Shown here piece after piece: positions 18,735 through 61,723 of a DNA stretch of 64,000 bases. The DNA lies in contig CANQID010000004.1 of the NCBI GenBank assembly GCA_947623925.1, positions 8,405-72,404 of the forward strand. Direction: 5' to 3'. This DNA is from an uncultured Bacilli bacterium (GTDB lineage: Bacteria > Bacillota_I > Bacilli_A > RF39 > UBA660). Numbering within the stretch: the first letter of the stretch is position 1; each line of letters starts with the position of its first letter. The position numbers and the translations under genes are program-made. The notes beneath the pieces were generated by a model. It was given only the letters and a program-made list of their open reading frames with translations, made no database searches and was not told the origin of the DNA.

Positions 18735-21700
18735 CTAATCTAACTTCTTTAAATCATCTTTAATAATAGAATATAAATATATATTTACCTTTTTATTAGT
18801 TTTTAAAGTTATATAATTTTTATATCCAATCAACTGATTATTATATTTTTCATCATCAATATTTGATAATTTATAATCGATTATATCTATATAATCGTCA
18901 TATTCTATCATGAGATCAATTACACCTTTATATAATAAATCATCAATCATATATTCAAATTCATATTCTTTATATATTTTAGAATTTTTAATATTTTTAA
19001 ATATATCATTATTTAAAAATTTTTGTATTCTATTTCTATCTTTAGTTTCCAATAAAGAATAATCAGGATTTTTTAAATCAATCATTTCAAATAATTTATG
19101 TACTTTTTTACCATAAGACATATTATCATATTCTTCATTTGTAATTAAATCTTTAACTTGTTTAGAAAAATTATTTTTTTCTAATTTATATGAATCAATT
19201 TTAATTGACTTAGTATTTATAACATTATCAAATTCACTTTTCAATGAAATATTTTTTGATTTATAAAATTTATAATCTTTAGTAATTACAATATTATTAA
19301 AATCTATTTTTTTAATATATTTATCAAGTTGTATTGAATTAAGCATATCATAAAATGACCTATATTTTAATTTTACATTATCATTTACTTCTAACGAATT
19401 ATCTAAATCAGGAGAAATTATAATTATCTTTTCTCTTGCTCTTGTAAGCGCAACATAAAATAGTCTAATTTGTTCTGAAATTTCTTCTTTTATATATTCA
19501 TGTTTAACCATATATTTATATATAGTTTCTCCAATACCATCTTTGTAATAAGGAACAATTATACCATATTTATTATCAAACAAAAATTTTTCGTTTAAAT
19601 CACTTATATTAAATTTTTTATATATCATAGAATAATAACATATAGGAAATTCTAGTCCTTTAGATTTATGAATAGTCATTATTTTTACACTATTTGTATC
19701 ATCTATATTAGTTTTATATTTTATATCAAATTTATAATCTTTCAAATTGTTTAAAAAATCTATAAAGTCATATACATTCATTCCTATATTTGATGTAGAT
19801 TCTGCTAAATCATATATATAGTTTATAATTGCTAAAAAGGAATTAATGTTACCTATTTTTTCCATTTTTTCATAAAATTCGAAATATGTTACAATTTTAT
19901 CTATTAAAATAGTAGGAGTTATATCATCTATGTCTAATAAATTATTTATTTTATTTAATAAAACACTATCATTAAAATTATTATTTATTTGTTTAAATAT
20001 ATTTTCATCGGTTTCTTCAATTAAAAAACTTCTTGATACACTCATAAATAAATATTTAAATTCATTATCAAATTCTTTATTTTTAACTTTCAATATTAAA
20101 TTTAATATATTTCTAATAATAGTTATAAGTACATTTTTAGTAACAACCTCATCTTTTATTAATGTAAGTGGTATTCCCATATATTCAAATATTTTTTTAT
20201 ATAGTTCAAAATTAGTTGCTCTATCAATTAAAATTACAAAATCATTATACTGGGCATCTCTTAGTTTAAAATCTGATTTATCTGTTACTTTATAATGATT
20301 TTTTATTTTATTTTTTATATCATTCGCTATAAAAAATATTTCTTTTTCTTCTTGTGTGAATTGTTTATCATCTTTATCGTATGTAAATATATCTAAATTA
20401 GTATCAACATCTAAACTTAAATATGATTCGTTTCCAAAAGAAAGAGCATGTCCATTATTATAATCTGCGCCACCTATATTATCATTCATTATTTGTTCGA
20501 ATATTTCATTTATATTATCGAGTACTTGTTTTCTTGAACGAAAGTTTTTGTTAAGATCTATTTTTACCCCATTTATATTTTGTTTATATGAATCATATTT
20601 TGATTTAAACAAATAAGGATTTGCATTTCTAAACTTATATATTGATTGTTTAATATCACCTACCATGTACACATTATTATTTGAAATTAAACTAATAAAA
20701 TTTTCTTGTAAATCATTAGTATCTTGGTATTCATCTATTAATATTTCTTTAAATGAAGATTTTATTTCTTCTCTTACATCATCAAATTCATTTACTATAT
20801 TACAAGCCATTATTGCGATATCATTAAATTCATATGAAGAAATACTTTTCTTATATTCTTTTATTTGTTCATCTAATAAGGTAATTATTTTTATAATTAT
20901 TTCTATATTTTCTTTTGTTAAATTTATACTTTCTTTTATACAATTTATATTTTCATATATACATATATCTTTTAATTCTTTTAGTATATTTGAAATATTT
21001 TCTTTGCATGTTTTTAAATCTTCACTACTATTTTTTGGTAAACTAGGTAACTTTACATTAATCATTGACACAAGCATATCATAATCTTTACAATTTATTA
21101 TTGGATTTAACAAATTATATAATTCTTCATAATATTTATTGTAATCCATAAATGAAATATTGTTTAATTCTTCTGATATTAAGGTAAGTTTTTCGTAAAT
21201 TATATTTAAAAAATTATTTATATCTTCTTCTATTACTTTTTCATTAAATTTATTTAAAATATAATCATTTAAATAACTAATTTTATTTATTTTTAAATTA
21301 AGTTTACTATTTATATCAAGTATTGCATCTTTTATTTCTTTATCATCTTTTAAACAAAAATTATTTATTAAATTTATAAAGTTTTTATCTTTTTGTTTAT
21401 ATAAATCATCAAATATTTTATCTATTATTTCATATTCTTTAATTCTTATTATATTAGAATCAACAATTGAAATTTTTTTATCTATATTAAGTAGATAGTG
21501 ATATTTCTTTACTATTGATAGTGCATAACTATCAAATGTTGTTATGTAACAAGAATCTATTTTTTCTAAATTTTTTTTATCATTTATTTTTATTAATGCT
21601 TCTTTTATTTTATCTTTCATTTGTCTTGCTGCCATATTAGTAAAAGTTAAAATAAGTAATTCATCAATACTAGTTTTTTCACTTAACTTTTTTATTACCC

Positions 21701-21806
21701 TTTGTGTAAGTACAGCAGTTTTCCCACTTCCTGCTCCTGCACTTACAATTATATTTGTTCCACTTGTGTTTATCGCACTCAATTGTTCCTTAGTCCAATT
21801 AGGCAT
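18735..21806 (-). CDS. addA: helicase-nuclease AddA (compact)
   Basis: 1023 aa. UvrD-type Walker A VSAGAGSGKT, DEYQD-like motif IDEYQDTN, and a C-terminal RecB nuclease motif GVIDLMIEYDD..IIDYK. Confidence 0.8.
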   Translation of the reverse strand: MPNWTKEQLSAINTSGTNIIVSAGAGSGKTAVLTQRVIKKLSEKTSIDELLILTFTNMAARQMKDKIKEALIKINDKKNLEKIDSCYITTFDSYALSIVKKYHYLLNIDKKISIVDSNIIRIKEYEIIDKIFDDLYKQKDKNFINLINNFCLKDDKEIKDAILDINSKLNLKINKISYLNDYILNKFNEKVIEEDINNFLNIIYEKLTLISEELNNISFMDYNKYYEELYNLLNPIINCKDYDMLVSMINVKLPSLPKNSSEDLKTCKENISNILKELKDICIYENINCIKESINLTKENIEIIIKIITLLDEQIKEYKKSISSYEFNDIAIMACNIVNEFDDVREEIKSSFKEILIDEYQDTNDLQENFISLISNNNVYMVGDIKQSIYKFRNANPYLFKSKYDSYKQNINGVKIDLNKNFRSRKQVLDNINEIFEQIMNDNIGGADYNNGHALSFGNESYLSLDVDTNLDIFTYDKDDKQFTQEEKEIFFIANDIKNKIKNHYKVTDKSDFKLRDAQYNDFVILIDRATNFELYKKIFEYMGIPLTLIKDEVVTKNVLITIIRNILNLILKVKNKEFDNEFKYLFMSVSRSFLIEETDENIFKQINNNFNDSVLLNKINNLLDIDDITPTILIDKIVTYFEFYEKMEKIGNINSFLAIINYIYDLAESTSNIGMNVYDFIDFLNNLKDYKFDIKYKTNIDDTNSVKIMTIHKSKGLEFPICYYSMIYKKFNISDLNEKFLFDNKYGIIVPYYKDGIGETIYKYMVKHEYIKEEISEQIRLFYVALTRAREKIIIISPDLDNSLEVNDNVKLKYRSFYDMLNSIQLDKYIKKIDFNNIVITKDYKFYKSKNISLKSEFDNVINTKSIKIDSYKLEKNNFSKQVKDLITNEEYDNMSYGKKVHKLFEMIDLKNPDYSLLETKDRNRIQKFLNNDIFKNIKNSKIYKEYEFEYMIDDLLYKGVIDLMIEYDDYIDIIDYKLSNIDDEKYNNQLIGYKNYITLKTNKKVNIYLYSIIKDDLKKLD

Positions 21807-21818
21807 AATATCACCTCC

Positions 21819-24104
21819 TTAATCTTCTTTTAAATAAATATAATCTTCTTCTTTTTTATAACATATATCACTATATATACAATTATCACAAGAACAATAT
21901 TTATCTATTCTTTTAGGATTTATTTTAAAATTTCCATCTAATATATTATCTATTGCATTATTTATTTTATCATCTACTAAATCAAACATATTTTTTATAT
22001 TTTCTTCATTTAAAAGTTTAGTATATGCATAAAATCCATTTCTTCCTTTTTTCATTCCTTTTATTAATAAACTATCTTCATAAGTTGAATCTATTTTTTT
22101 TATTAAGTCTTCTTTATCTATGGAATAACCTATTAGTTTATAATTACTATTTATATCTTCTTTATCTTTTATGTTTGGCAATTTATGAAGTAATTTTTGA
22201 TAATATAACCCTATAACTTCTACATTGTTATACTCTTTTTGTATTAAGTATAAATATATAGGTAATTGCATATCAATTCCATATTTAATGTTATTTAAAC
22301 TTGTATTAGGATTACCTGTTTTATAATCGATTACTACAGCATACATTTTTTCATTTTCTTTTTTATATAATATTTTATCTACAATACCCATAAATGTAAT
22401 TTTAACTTGTTTTGATTTGTCAATGTATATTTTCTTTTCATATAATTCATCATTTAATGAAGTATATTTTTTTTGATTTTTTATAATTTCTATTATTTCT
22501 TTTAAATTAATTGTTAGTTTTTTTAAGAAAAACTTTTCTTTAGGCGAAAATTGTTTATTTAAACTATTTATATATAGATCTACACTTTTTTCAAAATTAA
22601 AATTTGGTTTAAACGATACTGAAAGTATATAATGATATAAATTTCCTATTGTTAAATGAAATAAGTCATCGTTTATATTTAATTTTAATAAGTCATTTAA
22701 ATAATATTTAAAATTACAATTATAGTAATTATTTAAACTTGTATATGATAAAGTTAGATTATTATTTAAAGAGTTTAATAAATCATTTTTATTTATACCT
22801 TTAAACTGATTATTATAAGATAAGTATTTTACTTTATATTTATTATTAAGACTTAATAAATTTTTATTTACATGGCCATATTTTGTATATAAATCTAAGT
22901 ATTTTAATAAATTTAGTTTATTTATTTTATCTGAATATAAAGATATAAAATCATCTATTTTTTTTATTTCTATATTTAGTTCATCTACTATAGATGATTT
23001 AAAGTATTCATCTGTAATTGAAGTTAAAGAATAACTTAGCGTTAGATGCTCAGTTGTTTTTAATTCATAAATTGTTTGTATTTTATTTATTTCATTTAGT
23101 TCGTATGAAGTATCAAAACCAAGTTGTTTTTTTAAATTATCACTTAAGTAATCATCATCTTTAAGTACTAAAGGGAAATTATTATTAAAACCAATTAAAA
23201 AATTATATTCTTTTTTTTCGTTTATTGAAATAGCATTCATATATTTTTCTATGGTTATTTTAGTATTTTTTAATTCATTTTCTATTAATTCATATAAATA
23301 TTCATCAACACACCATACATATTTATTACAAATATCTACAAATTGATTATATAAACTACTATCATTAATACTAGATAAAGATTCTTTAATATTATTTGTT
23401 TCTTTTAATTTGTTTAAAAAGTTTGAACATGTTTTTGTTCCAAATAAATAATTATTACTATATAAATTAATTGGTATATTATACATTTCTGAAACAAATC
23501 TTATTGTATTTATATACTCATCATTTACATTTAAAATAGATATTTTGTTTATGTCTATTTCTTTATCAATTAAAAATGATATTTGTTCAAAAACATATAT
23601 TATTTCATTCAACATACTATCAAATTCGTAACACTTTTTTATATCATAAAAGTCTTGTTTTTTTATTTCTATATTTGTTATTTTTTTTATATCGTTTATA
23701 ATTTTTGTTTGAAATGAATTAAATTTATCATATCCTAAAATTATAACTTTTTTAGATTTTAAAAATGATTTATATAAATTGTTTTTAATAAGTAATTGTT
23801 CTTCTTCTAATTTTCTTTTTATTTCAACAAGTTTATTTAATTTTTCACTATTATATGTTTCATCATTAATAAGATATAAATTATCTAAATATGTTTTTGA
23901 AAGATTATAATTTACTTTATAATTTTTCATAATGTAATGTATTGTTTTTTCATCATATGCAAAGTATAGATTATTTTTTACTTCTTCAAATGTTGTTACT
24001 TTTGTATTATTTAAACTTTTTTTATTTATTTCTTTAATAGTTTTATTTTTTATATTTTGAGGTACTATTAACAAAACATCTAACAATGAATCCATATTAG
24101 TCAC
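21819..24104 (-). CDS. addB: helicase-nuclease AddB (compact, no N-terminal Walker A)
   Basis: 761 aa. C-terminal PD-(D/E)xK motif VIDYKTG and an Fe-S Cys cluster CSCDNC...C. It lies immediately upstream of addA. Confidence 0.7.
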   Translation of the reverse strand: MTNMDSLLDVLLIVPQNIKNKTIKEINKKSLNNTKVTTFEEVKNNLYFAYDEKTIHYIMKNYKVNYNLSKTYLDNLYLINDETYNSEKLNKLVEIKRKLEEEQLLIKNNLYKSFLKSKKVIILGYDKFNSFQTKIINDIKKITNIEIKKQDFYDIKKCYEFDSMLNEIIYVFEQISFLIDKEIDINKISILNVNDEYINTIRFVSEMYNIPINLYSNNYLFGTKTCSNFLNKLKETNNIKESLSSINDSSLYNQFVDICNKYVWCVDEYLYELIENELKNTKITIEKYMNAISINEKKEYNFLIGFNNNFPLVLKDDDYLSDNLKKQLGFDTSYELNEINKIQTIYELKTTEHLTLSYSLTSITDEYFKSSIVDELNIEIKKIDDFISLYSDKINKLNLLKYLDLYTKYGHVNKNLLSLNNKYKVKYLSYNNQFKGINKNDLLNSLNNNLTLSYTSLNNYYNCNFKYYLNDLLKLNINDDLFHLTIGNLYHYILSVSFKPNFNFEKSVDLYINSLNKQFSPKEKFFLKKLTINLKEIIEIIKNQKKYTSLNDELYEKKIYIDKSKQVKITFMGIVDKILYKKENEKMYAVVIDYKTGNPNTSLNNIKYGIDMQLPIYLYLIQKEYNNVEVIGLYYQKLLHKLPNIKDKEDINSNYKLIGYSIDKEDLIKKIDSTYEDSLLIKGMKKGRNGFYAYTKLLNEENIKNMFDLVDDKINNAIDNILDGNFKINPKRIDKYCSCDNCIYSDICYKKEEDYIYLKED

Positions 24105-25244: not shown

Positions 25245-25408
25245 AATACCACCAATTTAATTATAGCAAATCGATAATTCCTTTTCAATAAAAGAAGTAA
25301 ATAATTATTAAATTACTTGTAGTGTTACAATTGATGTGAAACATTTCTATATAAAAAAGTAATTCAAGTTGTATAATTGAATTAAGGAAAACAATAATAC
25401 GAAAGGAC

Positions 25409-25678
25409 TTGAATTACATGAATAGTATATCACAAAATGTAATATATTTACCACATGATTTAAACACAAAATTTTTTGCTGTTAAAGCATATATAAATGG
25501 TAACCTCATATCTTTTGTTTGTAGAAGATATAAATGCTTTAAAGCCTCTCTTATGAGATGGAATAAAAAATTTGATGGAACCAGAGAGTATTTAATTGAC
25601 AAATCCCATAAACCTTTTTCTCCTCACCTTTTATTTCTTTTATATCTTTATGTAATAAATCATCTATATTTAAATTAA
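25409..25678 (+). pseudogene. truncated transposase N-terminal fragment (IS481/IS3-like HTH)
   Basis: The segment ..ASLMRWNKKFDGTREYLIDKSHKPFSPH matches the rW..Y...G...L.D.SrrPh.SP motif of IS481/IS3-type transposase N-termini. No catalytic domain follows. Confidence 0.35.
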
Positions 25679-25844
25679 ATTTATCACATAAAAGAATAAT
25701 TTTATCCATCTCTGGATGAGATGCAGATGATTCCCATTTAGAAATTGCTTGTATTGATACACCTAGTTCTTCTGCTAACTATTCTTGTGAAAAATTATTT
25801 TCCTTTCTTATTTTTTTTAAATTTTCTGAAAAATTATTATCCAT
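25551..25844 (-). pseudogene. XRE-family HTH regulator interrupted by an in-frame TAG
   Basis: ATG at 25844 with an AGGAGA RBS. The translation is MDNNFSENLKKIRKENNFSQE-TAG-LAEELGVSIQAISKWESSASHP... The TAG at 25779-25781 sits where the conserved Glu of SQEELAE is expected. TAG is used as a normal stop elsewhere in the window. Confidence 0.5.
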
Positions 25845-26070
25845 ACATTTTCTCCTTTCTAATATCATTTTAAATTTTCTAGTGGTTGCATACTACCACT
25901 TTTAAGTTATTTTATGTAAAAAGTTAGTTGCTTTTTATTATAACATAAAAAGTAAACCTTTTTTTAATTTACTTTAAATTACAATTATAAAATAAACTCC
26001 ACTTAATGTGGAGTTTATCAAGCGTGAATAATTTATATTCACATTATTATGTTTTACAAATTAATTTTTT

Positions 26071-28536: not shown

Positions 28537-30879
28537 TTATAACCTATAAAACTTTTCTGTTACATTTTTATTTTGTTTTATTTCTAGTATAAATTCAGAC
28601 TGCTTTTCATTTGGACATACTATATAAACTTTATTTTTCGTTCTAGTAAGTGCGACATAAAATAGTCTTCTTTCTTCCGGATAAAGTATTTTTTCATCAT
28701 ATGTTTTATCATTAAATACTTTTAATAATGGTTCTGTTTCTTTTTTACTTGGAAATCCATATATTCCATCTAAAGCATTTATAATTATTACTTCATCAAA
28801 TCCTAATCCTTTAGAAGAATGCGCAGTTAAAAATGTTATATCTGCATTTTTCTGTTCTAAACATACTATTTTACCATGTGATTTAATATCAAAATATTTA
28901 CTTTCAATTAGTTGTTCTATATCACTATTATATCTACCTATTAATAAAATTTTTGATTTTGGATTTGAATTATATATATTTATAATTATTTCATTTATTA
29001 CTTCTATTTTTTCAAGTTTATTTTCTTGATTATAATATGCAATTTCTATTGGTTTATCTAAATGTTTATTAGAAAATAATCTTTTTTCAAATTGTGTTTT
29101 ATTTTTTGTAATAAATTCTCCTGCTATATCTATTAATTCTTGACTATTTCTATATGTATTTGTTATTTTTACAATTTCACCATATCCCATCATATCTGAA
29201 AATCTTGTAAATAATGATATATCTGACCCTGAAAAGCCGAATATTGCCTGCCAATCATCTCCAACTGCAACTATTTTTGCATTGAAAACATCAGATAATT
29301 TTTTGATAAAATTATATTTTTGTGTTGAAACATCTTGATATTCATCTACTATTATATAATCGTAATCAACTTGTTTACTTATATTTTTATATTCGAACAT
29401 ATCTCTATATGCATAATTTATCATATCTTCAAAATCTATCATATATCTATCATGTATATATTTATCATAGTATTTTATAACTTGTCCCATAAATTTTACT
29501 TGTTTTTTTGTATTGTCATCAAGTGCATTTTCACATAACTTTTCTATATCTTTTAAAGTATAATTTTTTTCTTTAAATCTAGTTATAAAATCTATCATTA
29601 AATTTATTAAATCATTTAACAAGGCAGTTTTACTTGTTTCCATTAGTCTTAAAAATATTTCTTTATCTGTTCTATCATTAAATATGAAACTTCTTTTTTG
29701 TAATTCATTTTTTAATTTGTATAATAATTTTTCATCACTATATATTTCTATTAAATCAGTATTATACATTTTATGAATATTTTTCTTTTTTTCTATTAAG
29801 TCATTATAGTAGGCTATATCATCAACTGAAAAGAATCCATCTTTTTTATACTTAGAAAGACCATAATATTCAATATAATATGGTTTAAAATTATTTTGGA
29901 GTGTAAAATCAGGGGAATATGATACATTATTTTCTAATTTATGTGGATAAGTTTGTTCATATAAATATGGAATATTCGATTCATATAAAAAATTAGCTAT
30001 TTTAACTTCTTCCTTTGACTTTAATTTTTCACCATTTATGGAAATTAAATTTTTTAATCTATCATTTATTTTTTGATTATTAAATTCTTTTAAATTATGT
30101 TTTACTTCTTTATATTTTTTTCTTGTATAATAATCATAATATTCATCAAATGTTTTATATTTTAAACATTTATTATCAAACGACAAATAATTACAAAATA
30201 TTTTATTTACTTGTTTTAATAATGGTTTATTTATAAACAAGTTTTCCACAATAAATTGTCTTAATATTTCATATTTTCCACTTTCAGTTACTATTTTTAG
30301 TGGATGTTTGAACTTTTTTCTTAAAATATCCATTCCTAATTTATGAAATGTTGTTACATTTGCATTTAATTTAAATTGATTATTTATTCTATCTTGTAAT
30401 TCTTCTGTTGCCCTTTTTGTAAATGACATTACAACTATTCTTTTTGGGTCAGTATTTAATTTTTCAACTAAATATTTTACTTTAGCAGACATTGTAGTAG
30501 TTTTCCCACTTCCTGCTCCTGCTATAACAAGTGAATAATCTTCATCTATAAGAATTGCCCTTCTTTGTTCTTCATCTAATTTTATATTTGAATCAATATC
30601 ATCAAAAATATGGTCAAAATAATCTTTATATTCAACTAATTTTTTTTCAATAAATTTTTCGTTATGTCTACTTATTATTTCATCAATTTTATTTGTTATA
30701 TTTTTAACTAAATTAAAAGTATTGTTATTATATTTCATATTTTTAAATAAGTATTCGTATTTATCTAGTATTTCGTCATATTTCCTTTTTGATATATAAA
30801 TATCTTTGTTAATTAAGTCTTTTATTTCTTTTAAATATGAAAGTCCTAATTGCTCTAAATCTATACATTCTTTAATCAA
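28537..30879 (-). CDS. UvrD/Rep-family helicase (HelD / helicase IV-like) with a ~250-aa insertion in domain 1A carrying a restriction-endonuclease-like motif
   Basis: Walker A AGAGSGKT (aa ~120), DEYQD (aa ~520), and VALTRTKNK near the C-terminus. The insertion at aa ~285-345 reads SKEEVKIANFLYESNIPYLYEQ..SYSPDFTL..YYIEYYG, which resembles the DUF559/Vsr-like PD-(D/E)xK fold. Confidence 0.65.
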   Translation of the reverse strand: MIKECIDLEQLGLSYLKEIKDLINKDIYISKRKYDEILDKYEYLFKNMKYNNNTFNLVKNITNKIDEIISRHNEKFIEKKLVEYKDYFDHIFDDIDSNIKLDEEQRRAILIDEDYSLVIAGAGSGKTTTMSAKVKYLVEKLNTDPKRIVVMSFTKRATEELQDRINNQFKLNANVTTFHKLGMDILRKKFKHPLKIVTESGKYEILRQFIVENLFINKPLLKQVNKIFCNYLSFDNKCLKYKTFDEYYDYYTRKKYKEVKHNLKEFNNQKINDRLKNLISINGEKLKSKEEVKIANFLYESNIPYLYEQTYPHKLENNVSYSPDFTLQNNFKPYYIEYYGLSKYKKDGFFSVDDIAYYNDLIEKKKNIHKMYNTDLIEIYSDEKLLYKLKNELQKRSFIFNDRTDKEIFLRLMETSKTALLNDLINLMIDFITRFKEKNYTLKDIEKLCENALDDNTKKQVKFMGQVIKYYDKYIHDRYMIDFEDMINYAYRDMFEYKNISKQVDYDYIIVDEYQDVSTQKYNFIKKLSDVFNAKIVAVGDDWQAIFGFSGSDISLFTRFSDMMGYGEIVKITNTYRNSQELIDIAGEFITKNKTQFEKRLFSNKHLDKPIEIAYYNQENKLEKIEVINEIIINIYNSNPKSKILLIGRYNSDIEQLIESKYFDIKSHGKIVCLEQKNADITFLTAHSSKGLGFDEVIIINALDGIYGFPSKKETEPLLKVFNDKTYDEKILYPEERRLFYVALTRTKNKVYIVCPNEKQSEFILEIKQNKNVTEKFYRL

Positions 30880-30936
30880 ATAACTTCCTCCTTTAAAAAA
30901 CTAGCACAAACTTTAAAGTCTGTACTAGCACTTTTT

Positions 30937-31947
30937 TTAAAAATATATTTTTTTTAATGTTTTTGAAATTTCATTACTTTTATTTATTTTTTCTTTTAAA
31001 ATTTCTATTCTTTTTTCTCTTATTCCTTCATAATTGTTACAATCAAAATCTGTAAAATAGTCTGAATCTAATTGCGAATATATACCTGATAAAATTTGAT
31101 CATTTTTATCTATTACAAATATCAATGTATCTTCTAATTTTTTATTATATAAATTAACTTCAGATTCCATATTTTCTAAAATTATTTTATCATATACAAG
31201 ATATTTAAAATCATCATTATTTTTTTGTTTCAATGGTAAAATATTTGAATATTTTCTAGTTGTAAATTTTGCATTTTCAATATCATATAATCTATTTTCA
31301 ATAATAGCTATTTTATTATCATATGTAGCCTTAGGTACTATAGTATCACATATATTATCTAAATCTAAATCAGAAAATTGCATAATTGGTATACCTTTTA
31401 AAATTTTAATATCTGAATCTTTTTTTGTTGGAAATTGCATAACATTATTAACTTTATCTACATACTTACCATTATGTACATCATACAAATCTCCATTAAT
31501 TATTGCATTATCATTTGAAGTATGTATAATTAATGGGAAATCTTTATTATTACTTAATAAATTATTATTAATCATTACAGGTGTTTTATTAATTAATCTA
31601 ACATGATGACAAATCTTATTAGCAGGATCATAATCATCTCTAACTGTTATTATAAAATCATTACTCCCAAATCTAGATATATTTAAATTTCTTGGTAAAC
31701 ACATTAAATCAAGTATTGCTTCAGATTTAGAATCTAACTTATTACTTGTATAAAAAACTTCTTCAAAATTTTCATTAATCAATCCATATGCAATTTCACT
31801 AGAGTTTTCATCATCTACAAGTAAAGAAATACAAATTTTTGCTACCGCAATACCATCTATAAACTTTAATTTTTCTGGATTAATAACTTCTATAGAATTT
31901 GCAGTATACCTAAATAAATTTTTCCCTTTTAATTTTATACTTCTCAT
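30937..31947 (-). CDS. hypothetical protein (336 aa), first gene of a pair with the helicase
   Basis: No recognisable motif. It lies 57 bp upstream of the helicase on the same strand. Confidence 0.45.
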   Translation of the reverse strand: MRSIKLKGKNLFRYTANSIEVINPEKLKFIDGIAVAKICISLLVDDENSSEIAYGLINENFEEVFYTSNKLDSKSEAILDLMCLPRNLNISRFGSNDFIITVRDDYDPANKICHHVRLINKTPVMINNNLLSNNKDFPLIIHTSNDNAIINGDLYDVHNGKYVDKVNNVMQFPTKKDSDIKILKGIPIMQFSDLDLDNICDTIVPKATYDNKIAIIENRLYDIENAKFTTRKYSNILPLKQKNNDDFKYLVYDKIILENMESEVNLYNKKLEDTLIFVIDKNDQILSGIYSQLDSDYFTDFDCNNYEGIREKRIEILKEKINKSNEISKTLKKIYF

Positions 31948-32007
31948 AAAAATTTCCCCTTAAATATTTAGGCATATTTTAACAAGGAAATATATAAATG
32001 TCAAGTT

Positions 32008-36031: not shown

Positions 36032-36108
36032 GGCGAAATTGGTGAAGTGGTTAACACGGCGGATTGTGGTTCCGTTATGCAAGAGTTCGATCCTCTTATT
36101 TCGCCCCA
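36032..36108 (+). tRNA. tRNA-His (anticodon GTG) with encoded G-1
   Basis: Manually folded. G-1 is paired with C73. The acceptor stem is GCGAAAT/ATTTCGC, the D-arm has GG, the anticodon loop is TTGTGGT, the T-loop is TTCGATC, and CCA is encoded. A hairpin (AAACCTT-TA-AGGTTT) plus T-run follows at 36121-36140. Confidence 0.85.
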
Positions 36109-61635: not shown

Positions 61636-61723
61636 ATTTTATCTCCTTCCGCCATGACAAACTTATGTCATAGAAATTTACTTACATAGTATAACAATAT
61701 TTTAATTAAAAATCAACTGTTTT

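Follow-up and report, generated by a model that had tools for sequence, protein, structure and literature searches.

What does a UvrD-type helicase do with a nuclease-like fold buried inside its motor, and does it act alone or together with the gene beside it? This question is raised by a locus in a stretch of 64,000 nucleotides from an uncultured Bacilli bacterium of the RF39 lineage (assembly GCA_947623925.1, contig CANQID010000004.1, positions 8,405 to 72,404 of the forward strand), which we refer to as the window and whose coordinates, counted from its first letter, are used throughout. A sequence-only reading of this DNA had described a 780-residue helicase with an insertion between its Walker A and DEYQD motifs and a 336-residue open reading frame (ORF) 57 bp upstream on the same strand, and both ORFs are present. 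The explanation that we favour, and hold to be rather probable, is that the helicase is a stand-alone, single-chain helicase-nuclease, in which a helicase IV-like motor carries a PD-(D/E)xK module within its 1B domain. The features on which the argument depends are the following.

28537..30879, minus strand: helicase gene from the ORF listing, 780 residues, helicase IV-like, superfamily 1A (SF1A), UvrD family, without a 2B domain
30580..30879, minus strand: N-terminal helical region, residues 1-100, seen in the secondary structure of the model and without a family match
30499..30519, minus strand: Walker A motif, GAGSGKT, residues 121-127, invariant in 53 homologues
29455..30306, minus strand: expanded 1B region, residues 192-475, a helical scaffold plus the inserted nuclease-type domain, delimited by the Rep alignment and the model
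29680..30048, minus strand: PD-(D/E)xK (restriction-endonuclease-like) domain, residues 278-400, identified by an AlphaFold2 model, hhalign, profile search, Foldseek and conservation
29332..29346, minus strand: helicase motif II, DEYQD, residues 512-516, with D512, E513, Y514, Q515 and D516 all invariant
30937..31947, minus strand: upstream neighbour from the ORF listing, 336 residues, in the orientation of the helicase and separated from it by 57 nucleotides

The class of the motor was established from several independent comparisons. In Pfam, the 780-residue protein matched UvrD-helicase (4.6e-42), UvrD_C (1.3e-14) and AAA_19, and a sequence search of the PDB returned Rep, PcrA and UvrD as the best chains, with E values of 7e-28 (Rep) to 1e-19. 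The best NCBIfam model, and the closest curated family, is that of E. coli DNA helicase IV (HelD; PRK11054, NF008276), which was matched at 286.9 bits, under the equivalog cut-off of 543; judged by these scores, the protein is a relative of helicase IV and not an equivalog. Helicase motifs I to VI are all invariant in the 53 homologues aligned, and Walker A and DEYQD fall close to residues 120 and 520, as had been read from the sequence. An AlphaFold model of the complete protein, built on the same 53 homologues, reached a predicted local distance difference test (pLDDT) score of 87.6 and a predicted template modelling score of 0.80, and its best Foldseek matches among solved structures were again UvrD, Rep and PcrA (E about 1e-19).

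The comparison with E. coli helicase IV shows both how much is shared and where the two proteins part. Both have the same SF1A core, and BLASTP aligned residues 71-191 and 459-773 of the window protein to E. coli HelD as collinear blocks at about 30% identity. Both also lack a 2B domain; in the window protein, about 40 residues stand where Rep has residues 339-551. In contrast, the window protein does not have the Helicase_IV_N region of about 170 residues: Pfam gave no Helicase_IV_N match in it, the alignment begins at residue 172 of E. coli HelD, and only the last 30 or so residues of the N-terminal region take part. The second difference lies between the two blocks, where the window protein has 268 residues (191-459) against about 100 in the E. 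coli protein, which carries no nuclease-type domain. The insertion noticed in the sequence-only reading is thus real, with about 170 additional residues, of which about 120 (278-400) form the nuclease-type fold, and the peptides that had been quoted from it are found at residues 288 (SKEEVK), 320 (SYSPDF) and 334 (YYIEYYG). The insertion point is flanked by the equivalents of Rep residues 97-107, and Rep residues 107-195, which make up 1B, align to residues 400-490, so the insert is positioned within the 1B domain. In UvrD-type helicases this domain sits at the junction of single strand and duplex.

Structure prediction of the inserted segment alone, which the sequence-only reading had proposed as a check, gave a confident PD-(D/E)xK fold. 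The separate model of residues 278-400 has a pLDDT of 90.8, and its elements follow one another in the order of the PD-(D/E)xK core (helix, three strands, helix, strand, helix); for the acidic residues that mark the second and third strands of this core, the insert has the invariant D324 and E337. Searched with Foldseek against solved structures, the insert retrieved only PD-(D/E)xK nucleases, with Bax1 at the top and the R2 endonuclease domain, Hjc, RecU and Vsr among the others. Against predicted viral structures (BFVD), template modelling (TM) scores of 0.6-0.77 and E values down to 3e-8 were obtained, for targets that bear the annotations DUF2726, DUF559, restriction enzyme or homing endonuclease.

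The earlier label of a DUF559/Vsr-like nuclease is acceptable at the level of the fold, to which the likeness with Vsr, DUF559 and DUF2726 is restricted; by sequence, the insert is nearer to phage T7 endonuclease I. The Vsr/DUF559/DUF2726 branch supplies the best predicted-viral fold matches, and these families also lack the classical lysine. However, the insert lacks the E-x-D-G...H signature of DUF559 and has E-Y-Y-G instead, and Pfam gave no match to the three families (PF03852, PF04480, PF10881) either in the query or in 33 insert sequences. When a profile of the insert was run against the PDB, T7 endonuclease I was found with an E value of 0.012 and Bax1 with 0.17, and the alignment of the cross-phylum insert alignment with the T7 gene 3 protein by hhalign covered the catalytic core with 91.7% probability and an E value of 8e-7. 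The Pfam family Phage_endo_I (PF05367) was matched weakly by 13 of the 33 insert-bearing homologues (best 1.1e-4) and not by the query itself. Taken at the level of sequence, the insert is best seen as a probable remote homologue of the T7 endonuclease I family, not as a member of it.

This relationship extends to the putative active site. T7 endonuclease I is a junction-resolving PD-(D/E)xK enzyme (PDB 1m0d/2pfj) whose S-x-x-E, YE, PDF and E(x)x-G motifs align with those of the insert, such that E291, E308, D324 and E337 correspond to E20, E35, D55 and E65, and Y339 to K67. A review passage (PMC11833611) describes the T7 enzyme as crippled by mutation of E20, E35, D55, E65 or K67. The two proteins differ in that K67 gives way to an aromatic residue in the insert, and in that the T7 enzyme is a domain-swapped homodimer whereas the insert is part of a single-chain helicase. 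The insert does not owe its motifs to chance: it is kept in all but two of 52 homologues (45-74% identity), with the consensus KS-x-x-E-V-x-IAN-x-LY ... Y-x-YE ... SY-x-PDFT ... IYIEYYG ... KK-x-x-x-H ... TDLIE, in which S288, E291, N296, Y307, E308, P323-D324-F325, E337, G340, K365 and H369 are invariant or nearly so. The four acidic residues E291, E308, D324 and E337 are invariant across Firmicutes, Proteobacteria, Bacteroidota, Actinomycetota, Myxococcota and archaea, which argues for a functional metal site. Our candidate active site comprises these four residues, with Y339 at the place of the canonical lysine; the near-invariant K365 and H369, on the helix that follows E337 and Y339, may stand in for the lost lysine.

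A mechanism can be proposed on this basis. The motor, made up of domains 1A and 2A without 2B, would translocate 3' to 5' on single-stranded DNA, as suggested by its homology with UvrD, Rep, PcrA and helicase IV. Its enlarged 1B domain would bear a metal-binding endonuclease module, whose closer kin are T7 endonuclease I, Bax1 and Hjc and whose remoter kin are Vsr, DUF559 and DUF2726. Most likely, unwinding driven by ATP would present the module with a fork, flap or branch point, and the module would then cut it. The helicase motifs, the fold of the insert with its conserved acidic residues, its place in 1B, the distribution of the family, the want of a conserved partner and the leader hairpin described below are direct observations, whereas nuclease activity, substrate, polarity, regulation and cellular role are inferred.

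The protein would work in the manner of known systems in which a translocating helicase is coupled to a PD-(D/E)xK nuclease at forks, bubbles or ends, namely archaeal XPB-Bax1, AddAB, RecBCD, AdnAB, Dna2 and Nhi/Hhe, and helicase-nuclease machines are central both to DNA repair (AddAB, RecBCD, Dna2, XPB-Bax1) and to several anti-phage systems. In the systems just named, the nuclease forms a subunit of its own or a domain at one end of the protein, whereas here it lies within domain 1B of an SF1A helicase, and PADLOC and NCBIfam gave no sequence-level membership of the window helicase in any of them. A nuclease within the junction-contacting 1B domain is a layout that we did not find described in the literature searched, in which a survey of PD-(D/E)xK proteins makes no mention of UvrD or helicase IV (PMC3424549). 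The family is large and phylogenetically broad, and it is apparently uncharacterised. An active module would make the protein a compact model for the coupling of unwinding and cutting, and a candidate single-gene defence or mobile-element factor.

The distribution of the family bears on what such an enzyme might do. A word-indexed search with the helicase gave 1910 matches, and the best 120 of them, on which our description rests, are nearly all 720-820 residues long and derive from Bacilli and Clostridia metagenomes. With a hidden Markov model (HMM) of the insert, proteins that combine helicase and insert were found in Clostridia, Bacilli, Flavobacteriaceae, Alpha-, Beta- and Gammaproteobacteria, Latescibacterota, Myxococcota, Vicinamibacterales, Actinomycetota and Anaerolineae, and among archaea in Thermoplasmata, Haloglomus and Woesearchaeota. 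The insert also occurs on 85 plasmids, 33 of them from Acinetobacter, and always within a protein annotated as UvrD-helicase domain-containing. Sixteen predicted viral or integrative contigs of IMG/VR carry it as well, and at four of the 12 distinct loci there (L106, L109, L110 and L115) the gene adjoins large serine recombinases, which form a tandem pair in L109 and L110; tyrosine integrases are also found near insert-positive helicases on these contigs. Such positions suggest that prophages or integrative elements carry the helicases as cargo at their integration end. The matches in a phage collection were short unannotated contigs from faecal viromes and were not used as evidence.

A search of proteins with the insert profile gave mostly gene fragments, and only a few stand-alone proteins were usable (P0236, P0249, P0277, P0279, P0282, P0286 and P0288). 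These proteins of 145-190 residues, several of them archaeal, carry the same lysine-less endonuclease I-like domain with an E-Y-W-G motif after a hydrophobic N-terminus.

The neighbourhoods of the family members are varied. Firmicute relatives stand beside TIR and MrcB_N/NOV_C genes (L091), beside DarT/NADAR (DarTG), Eco57I-like, MazG-like and ASCH genes (L093) and beside a pP_pnuc_1 gene (L105). One plasmid carries two DUF262 proteins and a GIY-YIG nuclease next to the helicase, another a Lit-family protein with toxin-antitoxin genes, and a third ThiF, a multiubiquitin protein and a second large UvrD protein, while further plasmid contexts consist of transfer genes or insertion sequence (IS) elements. 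A wider sample of loci included a type I restriction-modification system, McrBC, MADS components and NERD and Macro domains, and most neighbours were plain metabolic genes. We read the gene as horizontally mobile and stand-alone, leaning to accessory, defence and mobile regions. Across the family, the patchy spread, the plasmid and integrative locations and the defence-type genes often found nearby speak for a part in conflict with mobile DNA or in its maintenance.

On this point the most serious rival concerns not the enzyme but its role. The same protein could be an ordinary genome-maintenance helicase-nuclease, acting on stalled forks or recombination intermediates without any conflict with mobile DNA, which we regard as quite possible. 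It is homologous to helicase IV, a helicase of E. coli recombination pathways, and its neighbours in the window are housekeeping genes, namely those for phosphoketolase, an SDR protein, D-Ala-D-Ala ligase (Ddl), a lipoprotein, CotJC, CotJB, TypA, an ATP-grasp protein and AddB/AddA. The local G+C content of 0.20-0.26 is like that of the surroundings, the order of helicase and phosphoketolase is retained in three species, and addAB lies 4.4 kb away. Against such a role stand the patchy occurrence of the family, its 85 plasmids and its recombinase and integrase neighbours, the TIR, MrcB_N/NOV_C, DarTG, Eco57I-like and pP_pnuc_1 genes beside Firmicute relatives, the lack of a LexA/SOS box (GAAC-N4-GTTC) anywhere within the window, and upstream genes that vary even among the five closest species. 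No mobility gene is adjacent to the helicase in the window. As the window copy is chromosomal and stands in a housekeeping block near addAB, a role in repair or recombination and a role against mobile DNA are about equally possible for it.

A broader proposal can be put forward, tentatively and with some doubt. Lysine-less modules of the endonuclease I/Vsr type in the 1B domain of helicase IV-like proteins would constitute an undescribed, widely transferred class of single-chain helicase-nucleases. These would cleave branched or foreign DNA at the junction being unwound, would serve as one-gene factors in immunity or in competition between mobile elements, and would be silenced in the clade of the window by a dedicated leader attenuator (see below).

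The second rival denies the cut itself: the nuclease-type domain would be catalytically dead and would serve, in the 1B domain of a specialised helicase or translocase, as a module for recognising DNA structure or for interacting with proteins. We consider this unlikely, but by no means negligible, and several observations weigh on its side or, more generally, against the explanation that we favour. The canonical (D/E)xK lysine is replaced by tyrosine, phenylalanine or tryptophan in every member seen, including those of distant phyla and the stand-alone homologues (E-[YH]-[YFW]-[GA]), so nuclease activity is not assured, and a relocated lysine at K365 is only a guess. The query insert alone has no match in Pfam, nuclease models included, and the Foldseek statistics against solved structures are weak, with a best E value of 1.7e-3 and TM scores of 0.4-0.5 (0.52 for Vsr, 1vsr). 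A Firmicute sub-clade of 377 member sequences, represented by P0021 and P0033, has lost strands 2-3 of the insert and all its acidic residues and yet retains the helicase motifs, which indicates that the helicase can function without a nuclease site. Moreover, no experimentally characterised member was found in the literature searched. On the other hand, the four acidic residues together with S288, K365 and H369 are invariant or nearly so across phyla and in the small stand-alone homologues, a pattern not easily accounted for unless the domain has a metal or catalytic site, and many active PD-(D/E)xK enzymes, such as Vsr and BamHI, lack the canonical lysine. The helicases of the P0021/P0033 sub-clade are 727-740 residues long and are found on contigs of up to 699 kb.

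We then turn to the gene beside the helicase. The sequence-only reading had taken the helicase and the 336-residue protein as the two components of an anti-phage system akin to Gabija, Hachiman or Nhi, an explanation that is now largely refuted and that we hold to be very improbable. The two genes do lie on the same strand with a short gap, and their adjacency is retained in the nearest relative, L002, where a protein of 253 residues, the nearest relative of the 336-residue protein (49% and 36% identity in two blocks), is encoded 55 nucleotides upstream of a helicase 73% identical to that of the window. The adjacency was seen only in these two species. Next to five further relatives of the helicase the upstream gene is a different one:

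L092: helicase 61% identical to that of the window; upstream, a 494-residue HTH_3 protein
L104: helicase 58% identical; upstream, HSP20
L105: helicase 54% identical; upstream, a pP_pnuc_1 protein
L091: helicase 51% identical; upstream, an MrcB_N/NOV_C protein
L093: helicase 47% identical; upstream, unrelated small genes

An HMM of the 336-residue family had no match at any of these five loci nor at more than 100 further helicase loci. In the other direction, one homologue of the 336-residue protein (P0123) is located after rpoC and an NT5C gene and another (P0126) before yqfD-ybeY-era-recO, which are unrelated housekeeping contexts; this direction rests on three loci, the contig of the third (P0124) being too short to tell. 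Other recurrent neighbours were sought as well. An all-against-all BLAST of 301 neighbour ORFs from 32 insert-positive loci revealed no family shared beyond close relatives except generic ABC ATPases and SDRs, a Pfam and PADLOC scan of 143 neighbour ORFs found no family in more than two loci, and no neighbour family recurred in the annotated plasmid contexts. The co-occurrence of the two genes across genomes, which the sequence-only reading had suggested as a check, is therefore not conserved.

The assignment to known defence systems fares no better. PADLOC models of GajB scored strongly against the helicase (to 1.4e-48), GajB chains in the PDB were matched around Walker A with E values between 1e-7 and 1e-8, and some distant family members do stand among defence genes. 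However, the PADLOC matches cover only the generic UvrD core that both proteins share, in three separate stretches, and GajB has no embedded nuclease fold. No GajA (an OLD-family ATPase with TOPRIM), HamA or other defence gene is found within 10 kb of the helicase. Hachiman, Nhi and Hhe consist of a HamA and HamB pair or of an SF1B or SF2 helicase with a terminal nuclease, unlike the SF1A, UvrD-type helicase of the window, and the best 25 PADLOC models for the helicase are all GajB or RTasHel, with no Hachiman, Nhi or Hhe model among them.

The 336-residue protein itself had been described as lacking a recognisable domain, and this is borne out: it has no significant match in Pfam, NCBIfam, PADLOC, PHROGs or the PDB. 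A word search retrieved only the protein itself, and an exhaustive HMMER search retrieved 41 remote cluster representatives, mostly of 250-280 residues, which make up a small family confined to low-G+C Firmicutes. In comparison with these relatives, a segment of about 55-60 residues is duplicated within the protein (approximately 110-169 and 179-235). A faint likeness of the family to WG repeats (one member, E value 0.048) is recorded here but not claimed. We conclude that the helicase is a stand-alone gene, not half of a two-gene system, and we do not regard the 336-residue protein as its functional partner. The practical result is negative: on the present evidence the two genes are not to be treated as one system.

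The region between the two genes offers a further argument against the pair, since it holds a terminator-like hairpin. The helicase starts at a TTG codon, seven bases downstream of AAAGGAGG, and at the equivalent position L002 has ATG. The features of the leader are listed below.

30895..30929, minus strand: conserved leader hairpin of 13 bp, with three G-U pairs, followed by a U-run, terminator- or attenuator-like (terminator scan, folding)
30887-30894, minus strand: Shine-Dalgarno sequence of the helicase, directly after the leader hairpin
31976..32004, minus strand: promoter-like site of the 336-residue gene, TTGACA, 17 nucleotides, TG-n-TAAAAT, an 11/12 match with an extended -10, identified by consensus match only
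L002:7952-7990, L103:12-50, L092:2334-2372 and L104:~855-892: the leader hairpin in relatives

The hairpin folds with -19.8 kcal/mol (z -4.2), has no match in Rfam, and also precedes the helicase, with the exact core GCTAGTACAGAC, in L002, L103, L092 and L104, that is, in five species with the window. In L092 it stands about 100 nucleotides after an unrelated gene, and in L104 it follows both HSP20, a gene with a terminator of its own, and a promoter-like stretch. As the hairpin is retained while the upstream genes differ, it belongs to the helicase and not to the 336-residue gene. In the alignment of the five sequences, 92% of the pair cells hold standard pairs; in four pairs G-U alternates with G-C, or U-G with U-A, and one pair is changed on both sides. 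This covariation comes from five sequences only and is equalled by 91 of 500 shuffles, and it counts as suggestive at most. The space between the hairpin and the start codon of the helicase cannot accommodate a promoter, so helicase transcripts must read through the hairpin. The hairpin may be a dedicated attenuator of the helicase, and read-through of such a terminator-like element abutting the ribosome-binding site would fit a tightly limited or conditional expression.

The last rival, an RNA polymerase-recycling motor of the HelD/HelR type with an unusual arm, is likewise highly improbable: the protein has about the length of B. subtilis HelD, lacks a 2B domain and bears its extra module at the 1B position, where HelD has its clamp-opening arm (PMC8655204), but the HelR model of NCBIfam (NF041254) was matched with 11.3 bits where its cut-off demands 750, HelD chains, whether from B. 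subtilis or from mycobacteria, were absent from the PDB sequence matches, B. subtilis HelD (6wvk_H) ranked only 30th by fold with a TM score of 0.38, after UvrD, Rep, PcrA, AddA and AdnB, the N-terminal region is short (100 residues), and the module is a compact nuclease fold and not a coiled-coil arm. In the division drawn by Larsen et al. between helicase IV, with a putative 1B domain, and HelD, with a clamp arm at the same place (PMC8655204), the protein falls on the helicase IV side.

Some further observations concern the rest of the window. The products of the addAB genes are much shorter than the usual length of about 1200 residues, with 1023 residues in AddA (18735-21806, minus strand) and 761 in AddB (21819-24104, minus strand), and Pfam found a PDDEXK_1 nuclease domain in AddB and none in AddA. 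About 825 nucleotides at 25245-26070 hold no long ORF, where L002 has a dCMP-deaminase gene; an 89-residue ORF there (25409-25678, plus strand) resembles the N-terminal part of an IS transposase but has no Pfam match. Over the whole window Rfam gave two matches only, a Firmicutes ribosomal-protein leader (L31-Firmicutes) at 61643-61673 on the minus strand and a tRNA gene at 36033-36105 on the plus strand, opposite to the genes that surround it.

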